In this document: one piece after another, positions 29,255 to 36,231 of the stretch | How positions within the stretch are numbered: the first letter of the stretch is position 1 | How the letters are laid out: each line of letters begins with the position of its first letter | The notes under the pieces: model-generated | Told to the model about the DNA's origin: nothing | What the model saw: the letters and a program-made list of their open reading frames with translations, nothing else | The model's database searches: none | Assembly: GCA_049509335.1 (NCBI GenBank) | Contig: JBEKZZ010000016.1 | Coordinates: 3,243-67,242, forward strand | Reading direction: 5' to 3' | DNA length: 64,000 bases | Source: Bradyrhizobium sp. | Lineage (GTDB): Bacteria; Pseudomonadota; Alphaproteobacteria; Rhizobiales; Xanthobacteraceae | Made by a program: the position numbers and the translations under genes

Positions 29255-30489
29255 GCACACTCTCCAACCATGTCCGGCTGTCGCGTCAGCCCGACTGCCG
29301 GCGACATCAGGATGACCACTGCCTGCGTGGCAAAGATCAGCGCTGCGAGGTACAGGCATGCTTCCGCGCCATAGAGCCCGCCGATCACGGCGCCCAACGC
29401 CGAGCCGAGCGGACGCGCGCCATAGCTCAGGATGTTGATGGCCGATACCCGGCCCAGCAGGCTTGGCGGCGTCACCGATTGCCGCAAGGTGGTGGTGGAG
29501 ATGACCCAGAGGATCGGACCAACGCCCAGAAGAAAGAAACCCAAGCCCGCAAGCGGAGCCGATGGAATGAAGGTGGTCAGCGCCATGATGGCGGAAGCGA
29601 TGAAGCCGGTCACGGGGCCAAGTCCAATCACGGTGCCGAACGGTATACGGCGCATCACTCGCGTTGCCAGCAGCGCGCCGACCACCATGCCGACGCCATA
29701 CATCGCCAGCGTGAAGCCGACGCCGGTCGCCGACAGTGCGAGATGACGCACCGCGTAAGGGACGAAGACGGCGAGCAGCAGAAACGAGCCGGTGTTGAAA
29801 ATGAACTGCGTGATGAAGACCGGCCGCAGCAGCGGATGCCGCATCACAAAAGCCGCACCCTCCCTGATGTCACGCAGCGGACGACGCGGGCGAGCGGCCG
29901 GGCGCTGCGGTTCGTAAATGCCGGACAACAACGCCACCGCGACCACGGATAGTGCGGCGGCAAACGCAAAGGCGGGCGCGGCCCCAAGCCATCCGACGAG
30001 GACGCCGCCGAGTGCCGGTCCGCTGGCGAAGGCAATGGTACGCGCCAATTCGATCCGCGCATTGGCCGCGGGCAATGCTTGCGCCGGCACCAGCGAGGGG
30101 ACAAGGGCAGGGGCCGCCACGCTGTACACGACCGTGCCGCAAACCGCGATGAAGCCGGAGAGCGCAAGCAGCGGCAGCGTCAGCCAGTTGAGTCCGATCA
30201 GAAGCAGGATCGCGAGCAGCGCCACCGCACGCACGGCTTCGGCGCCTGCCATCAGCCGCCGCCGTGAGATGCGGTCGGCGAGAAGGCCTGCCGGAATCGC
30301 GATCACCACAAACGGTAACGTCAGCGCCGTCTGTAGCAGGCCGGTCTCGCCTTCGCCGACACCAAGCATGAGCACGGCGACAATCGGGGCTGCGGCCAGC
30401 GCAATTTGTTCAGCCGATTGTGCGGCGAGGTTGGACCAGGCGAGCCGGTTGAAAGTGGCTGGCAGGCGGGGCGTGTGTTCGGTCGGCAT
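29251..30489 (-). CDS. MFS transporter (MFS_3/EntS-like)
   Basis: GLLADRISRRRLM motif A; about 12 TM; AAGGA RBS. Confidence 0.88.
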   Translation of the reverse strand: MPTEHTPRLPATFNRLAWSNLAAQSAEQIALAAAPIVAVLMLGVGEGETGLLQTALTLPFVVIAIPAGLLADRISRRRLMAGAEAVRAVALLAILLLIGLNWLTLPLLALSGFIAVCGTVVYSVAAPALVPSLVPAQALPAANARIELARTIAFASGPALGGVLVGWLGAAPAFAFAAALSVVAVALLSGIYEPQRPAARPRRPLRDIREGAAFVMRHPLLRPVFITQFIFNTGSFLLLAVFVPYAVRHLALSATGVGFTLAMYGVGMVVGALLATRVMRRIPFGTVIGLGPVTGFIASAIMALTTFIPSAPLAGLGFFLLGVGPILWVISTTTLRQSVTPPSLLGRVSAINILSYGARPLGSALGAVIGGLYGAEACLYLAALIFATQAVVILMSPAVGLTRQPDMVGECA

Positions 30490-30585
30490 GATTGATCCTT
30501 CGATCTCGATTGATCGACAATGTCGGTCGCCGACGGCGCCAAACCCACCCGTTTCCCGATAAGGCCCAAGAAGACAAGGCACATG

Positions 30586-30618
30586 AAAAAGCCTGCCGCG
30601 AGAAGCGCGGCAGGCTTT
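30586..30618 (-). terminator. Rho-independent terminator of the pspA-yqiJ-flotillin operon
   Basis: AAAAAGCCTGCCGCG-agaag-CGCGGCAGGCTTT; U-tract on the minus strand. Confidence 0.8.
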
Positions 30619-30678
30619 ATGTTGGTTCAAGTGTTGGTTTAAACGGCAATCAGATTTTTGTCTGATCCGGCTTAGCCA

Positions 30679-32448
30679 TTACGATTTAGGACCAAGCGTC
30701 GCATGGCCCGTTCCTGACAGGCTCGAAGGCGGCGCCGCGGGCGCGTCGGCAGTTGTCGCCGCCGCTTCAGCGGGAGTTGCCAGTTGTTGAGCGGCGAGCG
30801 CCGCGGTCAGGCTGGTCAGTGCGTCGGGACCAGCAGCAAAACCAGCCTCGGTCAGGATCTTGTCGATGATCGGCCTGAATGCCGATACCGACAGCAATTG
30901 CGCGGCGAGGCCATCGCCAAGCCCAAGCCCGGATCCAAGGCCGTGGCCGTTCATCCCGCCGTTGGCGGCGCCGCCCCGGCCGAGCAGGCTCCCGGTATCG
31001 AAGATCCGGATGTCGGAAATCTTCTCGATCGGCTTGACGGCTTCCGCAAGCGCGTTCGGGATGATGTTGATACGGGCGAGGTTGAGATCGTAGTCGATCA
31101 TCGCCGAGCTGAGTTTGTTGCGGGCCTCCGCCTTCATCGTGGCGACCTCGGCTTCGGCTTGTCCCAGCGCCTTGACGCCGGCCGCTCTTGTCGTGGCCGC
31201 ATTCGCATCCGCCTTTGCCAGCACATTGGTGGCTTCCGCCTTGTTGGCGGCGGCTTGCCTTTCGGCTTCCGCCGTCACGGTAATCGGCATCGCATTGGTT
31301 TCGGCGGCCTTGCGCGCGGCGATCACGTTGATGATCTTGTCGCGCTCGGCGATTTCGGTTGCGCGTGCGGTCGTGACCTTTTCTTCGGCGGCGATTGCGA
31401 GCGCGCGGGCGGTCTCGGCGATGGTTTGCGCTTCGGATTGTTCCTTGCTCTTTGTCGCCACCGTAATCGCGCTCTCCTGGGCGACGATCTGGAGGTCACG
31501 TTCCATTTCGGTGTTCTTGCGCTTGACCGCGAGATCGGCCTCGATCTTTCGGCTGTCGCGCAACTGATTGGCCTCGGTCTGTTTGTTGGCGACGGCCAGT
31601 TCCTGCTGGATGCGATATTCGGCTTCGTTCTGCAACGCGGTCTGTTCGACCTGGGCGGTCTGCGCCCGCATGGCCGCCGTCTTGTTGGCGATGTCGCGCT
31701 GCTGGGCGAGCTCGGCCTCGCGCTTGGTACTCTCGATCGTAAGCGTCGTCTGGCGCGCGACCAAATCCTGTTGCGCGATGTTCACCTCGGTGGTGCGGAC
31801 GATCTGGTTACGCTCCTGTTCGCGTTCCTTGGTGATCTTGGTCAGGGTCGTGAGGCCGTGCGCGTCGAAGAAGTTGCTCGGGTTGAAATGCTTGATGTCG
31901 CTCTGGTCGAGACGCGTCAGCGATACCGATTCGAGTTCGAGGCCGTTATTCTGGATGTCGGCGCCGACGGCATCCTGCACCGCCTTGACGAAGGTGGCGC
32001 GCTGCTCCTGCAACTCCTCGAGGTTCATGGTGGCGGCGACCGAACGCAGGCCGTCGACGAATTTCGCTTCGACCAGTTCGCGCAGTTCGGCCGCGTCGTT
32101 GGTGCGGCTGCCGAGCGTCTGCGCGGCGAGCGCGATCGATGACGTATCGGGTTTGACGCGCAGGTAGAATTCCGCGCCGATATCGACGCGCATGCGGTCC
32201 TTGGTGATCAGCGAATCCGGGCCGCCGCGGGCGACCTCGAGCCGCAGGGTTTTCAGGTTGACCGCGGCCGTGGAATGGAAAACCGGAAGAACGAGGGAGC
32301 CGCCGTCGAGCACGACTTTCTGGCCGCCAAGGCCGGTGCGGACATAGGCTTCGTCACGGGTCGAGCGCCGGTAGAGTTTCGCAAGCAACAGGCCGATAAC
32401 GAGAACGACAAGAACGCCTATCGCAACGGGTACTGCAAGTTCCCACAT
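30679..32448 (-). CDS. Flotillin/SPFH (band 7) protein, YqiK-like
   Basis: N-terminal TM, VRTGLGGQKVV..GG, LITKDRMRVD, NGLELESVSLT; Ala/Glu-rich coiled coil. Confidence 0.92.
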   Translation of the reverse strand: MWELAVPVAIGVLVVLVIGLLLAKLYRRSTRDEAYVRTGLGGQKVVLDGGSLVLPVFHSTAAVNLKTLRLEVARGGPDSLITKDRMRVDIGAEFYLRVKPDTSSIALAAQTLGSRTNDAAELRELVEAKFVDGLRSVAATMNLEELQEQRATFVKAVQDAVGADIQNNGLELESVSLTRLDQSDIKHFNPSNFFDAHGLTTLTKITKEREQERNQIVRTTEVNIAQQDLVARQTTLTIESTKREAELAQQRDIANKTAAMRAQTAQVEQTALQNEAEYRIQQELAVANKQTEANQLRDSRKIEADLAVKRKNTEMERDLQIVAQESAITVATKSKEQSEAQTIAETARALAIAAEEKVTTARATEIAERDKIINVIAARKAAETNAMPITVTAEAERQAAANKAEATNVLAKADANAATTRAAGVKALGQAEAEVATMKAEARNKLSSAMIDYDLNLARINIIPNALAEAVKPIEKISDIRIFDTGSLLGRGGAANGGMNGHGLGSGLGLGDGLAAQLLSVSAFRPIIDKILTEAGFAAGPDALTSLTAALAAQQLATPAEAAATTADAPAAPPSSLSGTGHATLGPKS

Positions 32449-32450
32449 GT

Positions 32451-33116
32451 TTATGCCCTGCGTGATGGTTGTTGTTGTGGTGCGAGGTCTTCGGGTGCGG
32501 AAATGGCAATGAAGCTTTTGCTGTCACGGTCGACCAACAGAACGCTGGCGCCAACGGGAAGCGGGGTCGAATCGGAGCTGGCGCGCGCCGGCACACTGTG
32601 CCAGTTGCCGAAGACATCCTTGAGACGGACACGGCCGGGCAATCCCTGATCCAGCGGTCCGATCGATACTTCGGCGACCTTGCCGACGAAATCGGCATCG
32701 TTCACGGCATAGGTCTCATCGCGCGGGATGATCCGCGCGATGCCGCGGCTGGTGACCCTGATCACCGGCAGGCTCAGCGCCGCAACCACGACCGCGGCAA
32801 GGCCGACCGGAATGGCTGTGCCGGCGATGTGCGCGAACCCTTGCAGGAAAAACCCTTCGATCGAAAACACGCCCAGCGCCAGGATGATCAGGACGAGAAG
32901 GGGAAGGCGGCCTGCATTGATCCAGAGAAACAGGCCGCCGATGGCGCTGTCGTGGTGTTCGACCTCAAGTGCGAAATCCGAGCCGATGAGTTCGCTGATC
33001 GAGAAACCGACGATCATGGTCAGCAGTTCAATGCCGCCGAGCGTGGTCATGATCGCGGCCGCAATCGCGAAGGGACGTACATCAGGCGCCAGCAAGATGT
33101 CGGTGACGGCACTCAT
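32451..33116 (-). CDS. YqiJ/NfeD-like membrane protein with C-terminal OB fold
   Basis: PFAIA N-terminus, WIN.GRLPLLV, IPRDETYAV, R+KD.FGNWH; directly upstream of the flotillin gene. Confidence 0.88.
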   Translation of the reverse strand: MSAVTDILLAPDVRPFAIAAAIMTTLGGIELLTMIVGFSISELIGSDFALEVEHHDSAIGGLFLWINAGRLPLLVLIILALGVFSIEGFFLQGFAHIAGTAIPVGLAAVVVAALSLPVIRVTSRGIARIIPRDETYAVNDADFVGKVAEVSIGPLDQGLPGRVRLKDVFGNWHSVPARASSDSTPLPVGASVLLVDRDSKSFIAISAPEDLAPQQQPSRRA

Positions 33117-34255
33117 TGCTGCGATTTGATCCTTTCAAGCCGCGCCGCGATTTCCCTTTCGCGGTGCAGCCGGTCGAGTTCATCAAGTGCCTTGTCGCCG
33201 AGCACGTGTGCTGCGGGAACGCCGGTAACGCGTGCGATCGCTGCCATGGCTCGGTCGGCACTCATGGTTTTAGTCGTGGGGAGCATCTCGCCGGGTTCAA
33301 GCGGCATCTGCTGCATCAGGCTTGTTTCGAGATCGGCAAGGCGAGCCTCGGCTTCACGCCGCGCACCAAGCATTGCCTGTAAGGCCTTGGTCTGCTCATC
33401 GATTTCCAGTTCGATGAAATCGGTCGCGCGCTCGAGAGCCAGCCCCTGCGATTCCAGATCAATTTGCCGTGCGACACCGGCACGCGCGAGGTCTTCGCGA
33501 TTTTCCGCAATTGCGAGACGGATCTTTTCCGTTAACCCGTTAACCTCCGCATCGAGTTGCTCGCGCCGCCGCTTGAGACGGAATTCTTCGGCCCGCGACT
33601 TGCCGAGCGCATAACGCGCTTCATCCGCGCCGGCGTCGATTTCGCGGATCGCCTGTTTGACCAGGGCGACCTTGTTGTGGTTCTCGGCGTTGTCGATGGT
33701 TTGGCTGGCGATGGCGGCAAGAAGCCGGCCCATACGCGCAAGGATGCCCTCGTGAAGCATGGTCTTCTCCTCCGGTGGAGTTGTTTTGGATTTGACGGCG
33801 ATGTGGATTTCGTAAGCTCGTCCGTCCGAGACCAGGTGGGCGGGGAAAGGGCTATCCCAGCCGGCAACATAACCCGGCACGTTGAACGGCACCAAGACGC
33901 GTCCCTTGACAGTGCTAATGGTGAGTGAAGTGGGTCCCTTGATTGCGAACAATTTGTCGTCGAGCGGAATTCGGCGCGCCGGATTGCCGGCGATATAGCC
34001 GGCGCGGTCGCGTAGGCCGAGCGTGACCAGCCGCGCGGGCAGCCCGGTCTCCACGCGAATCTTCTCGTAGGCTTGCGCGTGGAGCGAGACGAGGTTTGCG
34101 CCGACGGGCGCTACTTCAGCGAGTATCGCCATCATGCGGTCGTAGGCGGCGAAGGTCGCCTCGATCGCGGCGATGGCCGCCTCGTCAGGGACCAGCGCGT
34201 AACGGAGCGTAGCGGTCGGCGTTTCCACAGGTAGTTTGATCATGACTAATACCAA
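33113..34255 (-). CDS. PspA/IM30-family protein (aa ~166-380) fused to a TnpB-like WED/REC N-terminal domain (aa ~1-160)
   Basis: C-half: [14 protein letters not shown]...KQAIREI...REDLARAGV coiled-coil PspA pattern. N-half matches the TnpB N-terminal pattern by eye. Start uncertain (TTG 34255 or ATG 34243). Confidence 0.82.
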
Positions 34256-34310
34256 AGCACTTCTCCGGTACTTTACAATGGGGTCTCTATATTATTTCCG
34301 TGATCATCAG

Positions 34311-34356
34311 ATGCAGTTGCAAATTAGTTGCAATAAGATTGGATTTGCTCCATTTT
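34311..34356 (+). promoter_or_regulatory. mntH promoter with a Mur/Fur-type Mn-responsive box
   Basis: ATGCAGTTGCAAATTAGTTGCAATAA (repeated TTGCA units) overlapping -35 TTGCAA; 17-bp spacer; -10 CATTTT. Confidence 0.72.
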
Positions 34357-34362
34357 GGCTGG

Positions 34363-35751
34363 ATGGATGCGAAAAGCCCCGATTTGCCCTCGGCTTCCCC
34401 GGCAAAATCCGCCCCAGGCGTGATGGCCGGGACAGGATGGCGTGGCGAACGCGGTCCACCCTCGCTCGCGGAAGTCTTTGCCTCTGTTCGAACTGCCCCA
34501 AAAGGTCCGTTCTGGCGCAAGCTTTTGGCGTTCCTTGGCCCCGGCTATCTCGTCGCCGTGGGCTACATGGACCCCGGCAACTGGGCGACTTCGCTCGCGG
34601 GCGGCTCCAAATTCGGCTACGCGCTGCTGAGCGTTGCGCTGTTGTCCAATGCCATGGCGATCGTCCTGCAATCGCTGTGTACGCGGCTCGGGGTGGGCGC
34701 CGGCCGCGACCTCGCGCAGGCCTGCCGCGATTCATTTCCGCGCTGGGTATCGTGGCCGCTGTGGTTGTCGGCGGAACTCGCAATCACGGCCACTGATCTG
34801 GCCGAAGTCATTGGGACTGCGATCGGCCTCAATCTGCTGTTTCACATTCCGCTCGGAATCGGCGTCATCCTCACCGCGGCGGATGTGTTGTTGATCCTGG
34901 CGCTGCAGGCTTTCGGCTTTCGCTGGATCGAAGCCTTTGTGGTGGCGATGCTGGGCGTGATCGCGGCCTGCTTTGCGGTGCAGATCGCGCTGGCCGATCC
35001 CGATTGGGGCGCGGTCATGCGGGGCTTTGTGCCGACGGGCGAAATCATTGCCAACCACGAGATGCTGTATCTCGCGCTCGGCATTTTGGGCGCGACCGTC
35101 ATGCCGCATAATCTCTACTTGCATTCGGGGCTGGTGCAGACCCGCTTCATCGGCGAAGGCAGACAAGAGAAACGCCAGGCCATCAGGCTTGCTAACATCG
35201 ATACTTCGATCGCGTTGTGCCTGGCATTGATCATCAACGCCTCGATTCTGATTCTGGCGGCCGCGACATTTAATCGGGCAGGGCGGATCGACGTCGCCGA
35301 ACTCGATCAGGCGCACGCCTTTCTCGCGCCCCTGCTCGGCTCGACACTGGCGCCGACGCTGTTTGCGATTGCGCTCTTGTGCTGCGGATTGAACTCGACC
35401 ATCACCGCGACCTTGTCGGGTCAGATCGTGATGGAGGGCTTTCTGAACCTCCGCATCGCACCATGGCTGCGGCGTCTGGTGACGCGGTTGATCGCCATTG
35501 TGCCGGCGGTTTTGGTGACGCTTCTCGCCGGTGAAAAGGCGACCGGCCGCCTTTTGATCCTGAGCCAGGTGGTGCTCAGCCTGCAATTGCCCTTTGCCGT
35601 GGTGCCGCTGGTGATGTTTACCTCGAGCCGCCGCAAGATGGGTCCGTTCGTCGCGCCGCGCTGGCTGAGCGGATTGGCGATGATGACAACGGCGCTCATC
35701 ATCGCGCTCAATGCCAAACTGGTCTGGGATTTTTGGGCCGGAGGTTTTTAA
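34363..35751 (+). CDS. mntH: Nramp-family Mn2+ transporter
   Basis: [10 protein letters not shown] and [13 protein letters not shown] Nramp signatures. Confidence 0.96.
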
Positions 35752-35769
35752 GCACGCCTCCTCACTCCA

Positions 35770-36231
35770 CTAGGCCCATGCAAAGCCACCGATGAGCGCA
35801 GGCGCGTCATCATCGTTTTGCCGCCCGCGCACCAGCCGTTTGCGGCTCTTCGTGTTGCGCTGGCGCCGATGCCGGAAATCCACCCCACGTATCGCCGTCA
35901 GGAGGCCGCTGGCTGTTCTTGCGACCCGGGCGGTTACATGGCCGATGATGAACAGGACCGTTGCGGCGCGGCTTAGAACTCCAACCAGGAACACCACCGC
36001 GAAGATGTCGATATAGGCGAGAAAATCGCCCACGAGCATCAATTCAGGCGGAATCGGAATTCGGTGATAGTAAGCCAGGACGAGAATGACGACGGGGATG
36101 AACGCGATAATCCGCCGCAACGTCAGCCGGTCCAGAAGAACTGCCAATTGCACGACAAAGACGTCCCATAGCCAGTCGCCGAGAAGCGCCGGCTTGTCGA
36201 TCGTCCATGTCTTCCAGAGCGCCTTCCACAT
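35770..36231 (-). CDS. Hypothetical membrane protein
   Basis: Hydrophobic segments, PIPPELMLVGDFLAYID, basic tail; no family recognised. Confidence 0.6.
   Translation of the reverse strand: MWKALWKTWTIDKPALLGDWLWDVFVVQLAVLLDRLTLRRIIAFIPVVILVLAYYHRIPIPPELMLVGDFLAYIDIFAVVFLVGVLSRAATVLFIIGHVTARVARTASGLLTAIRGVDFRHRRQRNTKSRKRLVRGRQNDDDAPALIGGFAWA

Follow-up and report, generated by a model that had tools for sequence, protein, structure and literature searches.

What is the origin, and what the role, of an additional domain of some 160 residues placed in front of the membrane-remodelling protein PspA? This question is raised by a gene in a 64,000-nucleotide stretch of a Bradyrhizobium sp. genome (GenBank assembly GCA_049509335.1, contig JBEKZZ010000016.1, positions 3,243 to 67,242; the whole of this stretch is called the window here), which an earlier note had described as a 380-aa PspA open reading frame (ORF) with an extra N-terminal part resembling the first half of the transposon-encoded nuclease TnpB. 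The ORF is confirmed (33113-34255, minus strand), with 380 aa when it is read from TTG 34255 and with the Pfam PspA match from aa 170 on. TTG 34255 falls within a conserved inverted repeat (34254-34274). The close homologues, named as Bradyrhizobium PspA/IM30 family proteins and 374-376 aa long, begin at an ATG equivalent to that at 34243, and we therefore take ATG 34243 as most likely the real start of the long product. Sequence comparison strongly supports the reading of the N-terminal ~160 aa as a domesticated fragment of a TnpB nuclease that is without the nuclease half. The gene and its two main parts are as follows.

33113..34243, minus strand: long product, a TnpB-derived WED+REC domain followed by a linker and PspA/IM30; 376 aa from ATG 34243 (homologues 374-376 aa)
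33761..34243, minus strand: N-terminal domain, corresponding to a TnpB REC lobe without RuvC; aa 5-165 of the 380-aa ORF
33113..33760, minus strand: PspA/IM30 (ESCRT-III-like) part, from Pfam PF04012, AlphaFold2 (AF2) helices and alignment

The homology to TnpB surfaced only in an exhaustive profile search, whereas direct family searches were blank: for aa 1-168 we found no match in Pfam, NCBIfam or PDB-sequence searches, neither with the domain alone nor with its 8-sequence profile. When the same 8-sequence profile was run with hmmsearch against 1.84 billion representative proteins, 739 matches were obtained at E<=1e-3 and 178 at E<=1e-10, with true TnpBs (OrfB_IS605 plus TNB) being matched across the whole domain at E values of 1e-15 to 1e-18. 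One of them, P0177 (377 aa), is encoded by a stand-alone tnpB gene on a 757-kb contig and aligns to the profile over its residues 11-160 (E 2.6e-18); Pfam places OrfB_IS605 at 161-261 of this protein and a Cas12f1-like TNB at 292-358. The BLASTP comparison of the window N-domain with P0177 gives an E value of 4e-10. The best 150 profile matches include at least 45 TnpBs with a P0177-like RuvC part and at least 30 PspA fusions, and the alignment shows 13 core residues that are common to the N-domain and the TnpBs. Furthermore, the window protein has no OrfB_IS605 match and no PF07282 (TNB) match in Pfam, and its TnpB relatives begin OrfB_IS605 at the residue where the window protein moves to its linker and PspA. 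The claim of the earlier note that RuvC is absent here, not dead, is borne out by this and by the linker and PspA helices that follow the last WED strand.

With respect to the fold, an AF2 model of the N-domain built from a 50-sequence alignment (pLDDT 91.9, pTM 0.84) shows one strand, three helices and six strands (b1-a1-a2-a3-b2..b7), located as follows.

34193-34213, minus strand: WED strand 1 of the N-domain (AF2 model)
33992-34183, minus strand: three REC helices of the N-domain (AF2 model)
33794-33976, minus strand: WED strands 2-7 of the N-domain (AF2 model)

The model agrees with the order of blocks that the earlier note had read from the letters, with linker and PspA then standing in the place of RuvC. 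The comparison of an AlphaFold model with known structures by Foldseek, which that note had proposed, places the matches in the WED+REC lobes of TnpB, Fanzor and Cas12 proteins: 36 of the 37 top rows against the PDB are Cas12f, TnpB, Fanzor, Cas12k or other Cas12 chains and the remaining one is CasLambda2, the best row having an E value of 8e-4, a probability of 1.0 and a TM score of about 0.5. In an independent all-against-all comparison with VIA-align, the top 30 chains are all TnpB, Fanzor or Cas12, with Fanzor2 at Z 10.4 and ISDra2 TnpB (8H1J) at Z 10.0 over chain residues 1-191, and the first unrelated fold appears only at Z 4.3. Together with the profile and BLASTP matches, these structure matches sustain the proposed homology of the N-terminus to the WED+REC lobe of TnpB/Cas12f. 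It has to be weighed against the possibility that the domain is not derived from TnpB at all, being instead a divergent CesT/Tir-like PspA partner or a convergent OB-fold with a helical bundle. CesT/Tir-PspA dyads occur in operons with flotillin and YqiJ (Ravi et al. 2024, PMC11237479), which is the operon type found here, and the Foldseek values are modest; such an origin is, however, contradicted by the homology to true TnpBs over the whole domain, by the same strand-helix order with the shared core residues, and by the VIA-align result, in which the TnpB/Cas12 superfamily takes up all of the top 30. No Pfam match to a CesT/Tir (DUF2170-like) fold was found and no such chain is among the structure matches, the proteins of that paper being compared by description only. 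We reject an origin outside TnpB as very improbable.

TnpB (the OrfB of IS200/IS605-IS607 elements; ISDra2, PDB 8H1J/8EXA), Cas12f and Fanzor have the same lobe, consisting of WED strand 1, a REC bundle and the remaining WED strands as an OB-like barrel. In ISDra2 TnpB, WED occupies residues 1-12 and 117-176, REC 13-116 and RuvC begins at 185 (PMC10097598). The N-domain ends exactly where RuvC-I of TnpB begins, and the window protein differs from TnpB in being without RuvC, TNB and the C-terminal domain, with no omegaRNA detected. In addition, its REC part has 3 helices (~65 aa) as opposed to the 4 helices (~104 aa) of ISDra2, its net charge is near 0 as opposed to about +11 in TnpB, and its gene is single-copy and syntenic, outside any insertion sequence (IS).

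If the extension were a recent IS scar, that is, a functionless remnant of TnpB in decay, placed in frame with pspA by chance, we would expect it to be confined to few genomes and to be degenerate. Survey of related genomes gives a different picture. The N-domain is kept at 24-50% identity in other alphaproteobacterial families and so is not a chance in-frame reading of GC-rich DNA, and carriers known by name are Bradyrhizobium, Mesorhizobium and a Methylobacteriaceae metagenome-assembled genome. Within the genus, the fusion is carried by 33 of 80 species genomes, in two allele groups, and within the family by 6 of 150 genomes (4 of 62 genera). Among 400 genomes of the same class we observe three homologues with 37-38% identity in two other families, together with a weaker match in one more family; in each case YqiJ follows. 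In a phylum-wide sample (400 genomes), all fusions come either from the order of the window (three families, its own included) or from a single further family of the class; the two matches outside the class are one true TnpB and one 219-aa frame without RuvC or PspA. The patchy presence in the genus hints at loss or transfer.

The two alleles of the genus (loci L017, L018 and L035-L048 versus L015 and L021-L033) are deeply divergent, with ~88% and ~57% identity to the window N-domain, and no sampled genome of the genus has both together. In two Bradyrhizobium allele groups, of 15 and 16 genes, the N-domain has a pairwise dN/dS of 0.13 and 0.10, respectively, and the PspA part one of 0.11 in both. 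Given this conservation and these dN/dS values, we conclude that the N-domain is translated and constrained. Two Bradyrhizobium genomes have an interrupted N-domain with the PspA frame left open: G572 by a TGA near residue 47 (G572:C1:263533-264007) and G579 by a frameshift at 91/92 (G579:C27:95242-95734). Both could be cases of domain decay or assembly errors.

A maximum-likelihood tree of 50 N-domains puts the PspA-linked ones on one side of a branch with support 95/83. Two labels do not fit this division: P0174, a long-branch member, is placed beside the TnpBs, and P0171 nests within the PspA-linked clade with a C-terminal part that has no PspA match. P0171 (L014:1277-2752) has 491 aa, and its C-terminal ~350 aa give no match to the PspA profile or in Pfam. 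A separate event is represented by P0184 (486 aa; L013:1919-3379), a ParA-like fusion that joins a TnpB-type WED/REC to a ParA/MinD-like ATPase and that the tree places within the TnpBs; it was seen on one 3.7-kb contig, next to an IS66 fragment, and could be accidental or an exaptation in its own right. We infer from the sequences that the PspA-linked form was probably derived from a TnpB, because the distribution of the WED-REC-RuvC architecture exceeds that of the PspA-linked clade by far.

The window assembly (5.4 Mb, 84% complete) contains a single copy of the N-domain, and no IS ends, TnpA or second copy were seen at the locus, at related loci or in the assembly. The PspA-linked modules make up a single clade, which is not mobile and which purifying selection maintains. 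An IS scar would account for a domain that comes from a mobile-element gene and for the interruptions in G572 and G579, where PspA stays open; it is at odds with the conservation across several alphaproteobacterial families, with the single clade and its dN/dS values, with the confident fold and with the missing IS ends, TnpA and second copy, and we reject it as extremely improbable. The fusion that the earlier note had suspected is old, conserved in several families and held by purifying selection, with a recognizable similarity to TnpB, so that the conservation and selection looked for in that note are both found and nothing that the note had named as a refutation applies.

We next turn to the partner of the domain, since the gene is the first of an operon in which the start of YqiJ and the PspA stop codon share 4 nt and flotillin comes last.

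32451..33116, minus strand: YqiJ (NfeD-like) membrane protein, Pfam YqiJ_N and YqiJ_OB
30679..32448, minus strand: flotillin (SPFH/Band 7 and Flot), last gene of the operon, Pfam Band_7 and Flot

The PspA part scores 38.9 bits against PF04012 PspA_IM30 (cut-off 33.9), for aa 170-303 only, and because its NCBIfam PspA equivalog score of 31.8 is far under the cut-off of 243, we regard the window protein as a member of the PspA/IM30 family and not as an orthologue of E. coli PspA. AF2 predicts its helices at 167-185, 191-246, 250-311 and 351-375, a prediction that fits helix alpha0 and the long alpha1-alpha2/3 coiled-coil hairpin, followed by a disordered stretch and a C-terminal helix. The two domains are joined by a linker of ~14 aa that is disordered in the full-length AF2 model (pLDDT below 50), and domain-domain packing is not confident in that model (pTM 0.41). 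Complex prediction of the N-domain with the PspA part, both as alignments, gave no answer (score 0.00) and is evidence neither way.

YqiJ comes after the fusion gene at every locus examined, and the gene order PspA-YqiJ-flotillin is repeated in distant homologous loci. A split form (L049:4001-5170; also L050 and L051), which occurs on contigs from three samples, has a 167-aa WED/REC gene ending in TGA, then 3 nt, then a 220-aa pspA, YqiJ and flotillin. In a low-GC lineage (L053:5001-9012 and L054), WED/REC carries a ~150-aa coiled-coil tail (293 aa in total) and is followed by a 239-aa protein without a family match and then by YqiJ and flotillin, with an ATP-grasp gene upstream. From the split and low-GC forms it follows that the constant partner is the PspA-YqiJ-flotillin operon, and from the split form that the domain behaves as a dedicated partner of PspA and not only as a fusion. 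The head of this operon is the only place in which the PspA-linked domain is found, be it as the first domain of a fused gene or as a first gene of its own with translational coupling to the next. The fusion claimed in the earlier note accordingly stands as fused, ancient and conserved, except that it is not always fused, since the two-gene form exists. A stand-alone 157-aa WED/REC protein without RuvC, P0190 (L052:4001-4474), was observed on a 40-kb contig, with a PemK-like toxin gene on one side and genes for a single-stranded DNA-binding protein and a ResIII helicase on the other; the 159-aa ORF that follows it is not RuvC-like.

The arrangement has the same logic as the CesT/Tir-PspA dyads and B. 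subtilis pspA-ydjGHI (PMC8581546), in which an accessory module lies upstream of a yjfJ-like pspA, followed by YqiJ/YuaF and Band-7/flotillin, and the split form L049 is exactly such an accessory-PspA dyad. The difference from the CesT/Tir dyad is that the module here is TnpB WED/REC in fold and sequence, is mostly fused to PspA and keeps an internal start. This predicted start lies at the junction of the two domains.

33758..33773, minus strand: junction in the disordered linker, where the Shine-Dalgarno (SD)-like GGAGGAG (33767-33773) precedes an in-frame ATG (33758-33760); a PspA of 215 aa is predicted to start here

A Met is present at the junction in every fused homologue, and a GGAG, GAGG or AGGA core is found 5-16 nt upstream of the junction ATG in 41 of 41 loci with DNA, compared with 13 of 216 (6%) other in-frame ATGs and 2 of 37 loci for the first ATG; the loci are relatives and not independent, so these counts overstate the support. 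The amino acids neighbouring the junction vary while the purine core is kept, and in the split form the stop codon sits between the junction SD and the ATG. These patterns suggest that the locus makes two products, the long WED/REC-PspA and a short ordinary PspA of 215 aa. The short PspA would be well initiated at the conserved SD and ATG in the flexible linker, and the long form would be initiated by another route, from an ATG without SD just downstream of the inverted repeat. Three metatranscriptomes hold small shares (0.06-0.07) of the gene as Logan contigs with 90-95% identity, hence from relatives; these contigs touch both gene halves and one of 262 nt crosses the junction, which is too weak for conclusions on transcription, starts or isoforms.

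The same signals could also mean that the N-terminal part is untranslated in vivo, with only the 215-aa PspA being made from the internal ATG and the upstream frame serving as a long leader. The strong conserved SD at the internal ATG would fit this, as would the first ATG being without SD in 35 of 37 loci. The N-domain, however, shows protein conservation and purifying selection equal to those of PspA, a diverse alignment yields a confident model of it, and the split form gives it a stop codon of its own; the missing SD, for its part, fits a leaderless or otherwise unusual start. We consider an untranslated leader highly unlikely and reject it.

What the domain does is a separate matter, and here the comparison with TnpB is informative. 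In TnpB, the cleft between WED and REC holds the duplex of the transposon-adjacent motif (TAM), and WED together with RuvC holds the RNA scaffold, the omegaRNA (PMC10097598). Averaged over the PspA-linked domains, the net charge of the structured core is +0.2 (range -4 to +6), against +10.8 (range 2 to 16) for the 24 nearest TnpBs. At eight aligned positions and in one loop insertion, 60% or more of the TnpBs have Arg/Lys and the PspA-linked domains a non-basic residue, and in their REC helix 3 a change of R to L is fixed at residue 79 and one of K/R to D at residue 83. Invariant in both types are Y63, R67, D99, G118-R119 and Y129, which look like the core of the fold. These substitutions argue that the broad nucleic-acid surface has been lost in the PspA-linked domain. 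The earlier note had proposed a nucleic-acid-binding module that couples stress to gene regulation or to sensing of foreign nucleic acid; because about 10 positive charges are lost relative to the TnpB relatives, this proposal is weakened and appears doubtful.

The loss of the basic surface leads us to favour a role at the protein level, towards PspA and the flotillin/YqiJ complex. As a whole, the explanation we find somewhat on the probable side is that of a TnpB fragment in a gene with two products, which would not carry out RNA-guided DNA binding and would act as an accessory or regulatory module of PspA. Without the basic surface of TnpB, the domain would no longer be an RNA-guided DNA binder. 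It would instead be a protein-level accessory to PspA, in the position that a CesT/Tir-like chaperone gene has in related operons, and could cap, nucleate or tether PspA polymers at a flotillin/YqiJ microdomain. Alternatively, it could gate the membrane-binding helix alpha0, which begins directly after the linker. In B. subtilis, an SPFH protein ties PspA to the membrane (PMC8581546).

Several points weigh against this explanation. The position of the root of the tree is an assumption. The two-isoform model is drawn from sequence conservation only, and the SD is made up of E-E-K codons, whose conservation could reflect demands of the protein. Net charge is a rough indicator, R67 and G118-R119 are unchanged in the PspA-linked domains and the TnpBs alike, and the WED barrel, being OB-like, may have kept the capacity to bind a small nucleic-acid ligand, possibly the covarying inverted repeat upstream of the gene.

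34254..34274, minus strand: conserved inverted repeat/hairpin AAAG-N-AC N7 GT-N-CTTT, candidate cis-regulatory element

This repeat has a 7-bp stem and a 7-nt loop and ends 10 nt upstream of ATG 34243. In nearly every lineage, split and low-GC forms included, it precedes the start by 10-14 nt, and its inner pairs vary together across lineages and families, as expected of compensatory changes: in a 20-sequence alignment 94.9% of cells pair, compared with 34-46% when the partner is slid, and double changes, with both partners of a pair altered, are seen in 14 cells (0 of 500 shuffles). The 5 G-U wobbles occur without exception on the sense strand, the copy is the only one in the genome, and on inspection many other loci have the repeat flanked by CTTG and a TAT-rich hexamer. 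A sigma-70/terminator consensus scan of 34150-34450 gave no site, Rfam gave no match in 30000-36000 at E<=1, and no guide-like RNA was found at the locus by Rfam, the 21-nt repeat being the sole conserved non-coding element found. In a single-sequence fold of the window leader (z = -1.68) the conserved stem is not chosen and is not part of the minimum-energy fold. The repeat may be an operator in the spacer of a promoter whose mRNA is leaderless, or may form a hairpin in a 5' leader.

These features bring up another reading of the domain, which we regard as unlikely but to be taken seriously: it may still bind nucleic acid, most likely its own 21-nt upstream repeat as promoter DNA or leader RNA hairpin, with PspA sequestration at the stressed membrane altering expression of the operon. 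Such an autoregulatory loop would be PspA-PspF-like and built from the guide-/TAM-binding lobe of a transposon protein. It is in keeping with what WED and REC hold in TnpB, with a stem that is present in nearly every lineage and has compensatory changes and only sense-strand wobbles, with the uniqueness of the repeat in the genome, with the invariant R67 and G118-R119, and with the finding that none of the related loci examined has a separate regulator gene conserved beside the operon. Against it, some 10 positive charges are gone and conserved basic positions are now Leu or Asp, the RNA scaffold of TnpB is held by WED and RuvC together and RuvC is missing here, no Rfam RNA was found, the repeat may serve an unlinked regulator, and the hairpin is not the minimum-energy fold in the window alone. 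A more far-reaching form, to which we assign a low probability, has WED/REC as the sensor-output arm of a bacterial ESCRT-III: it would bind its own hairpin or palindrome and be freed or sequestered on PspA polymerization, so that membrane stress would set the operon without a separate regulator and the isoform ratio would tune the response. The protein-level accessory to PspA is the reading that we retain.

With respect to known systems, TldR, dCas12f-sigmaE, Cas12k and Cas12m are likewise TnpB-derived, host-domesticated, immobile and tied to a fixed neighbour gene (PMC10691335; bioRxiv 10.1101/2023.11.30.569447; PMC13472631). These, however, keep the whole TnpB fold, with RuvC mutated or partly truncated, as well as a guide RNA, and are RNA-guided DNA binders, whereas here only the REC lobe is present, joined to a membrane-remodelling protein and with no guide evident. 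A survey of exapted TnpBs reports sigma, SpoIIE, flagellin and ribbon-helix-helix partners, PspA not being among them, and these linked forms likewise retain the full fold and a guide. PspA fusions are reported to make up <2% of homologues, with no transposase-like domain mentioned (PMC11237479). Database labels of these proteins read simply PspA/IM30. We found no description of a RuvC-less TnpB module or of a TnpB-PspA fusion in the phage shock protein (PSP) or TnpB/Cas12 literature, including two PSP surveys and a TnpB/Cas12 survey, in agreement with the novelty that the earlier note had claimed. The module belongs to known kinds, as a TnpB derivative that has been exapted and as an accessory to PspA, and is not a categorically new system.

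Reported domestications of TnpB (Cas12 effectors, Cas12k, TldR, dCas12f-sigmaE and Fanzor) keep the whole protein and RNA-guided DNA recognition. Here, a single lobe appears to have been salvaged alone, wired into PspA/ESCRT-III and flotillin membrane maintenance, and kept by selection across Alphaproteobacteria. For the TnpB/Cas12 field, this offers a natural experiment on WED+REC without RuvC and apparently without a guide, and the PspA field gains a new accessory module of defined structure, with a predicted two-isoform gene and a dedicated candidate cis element.

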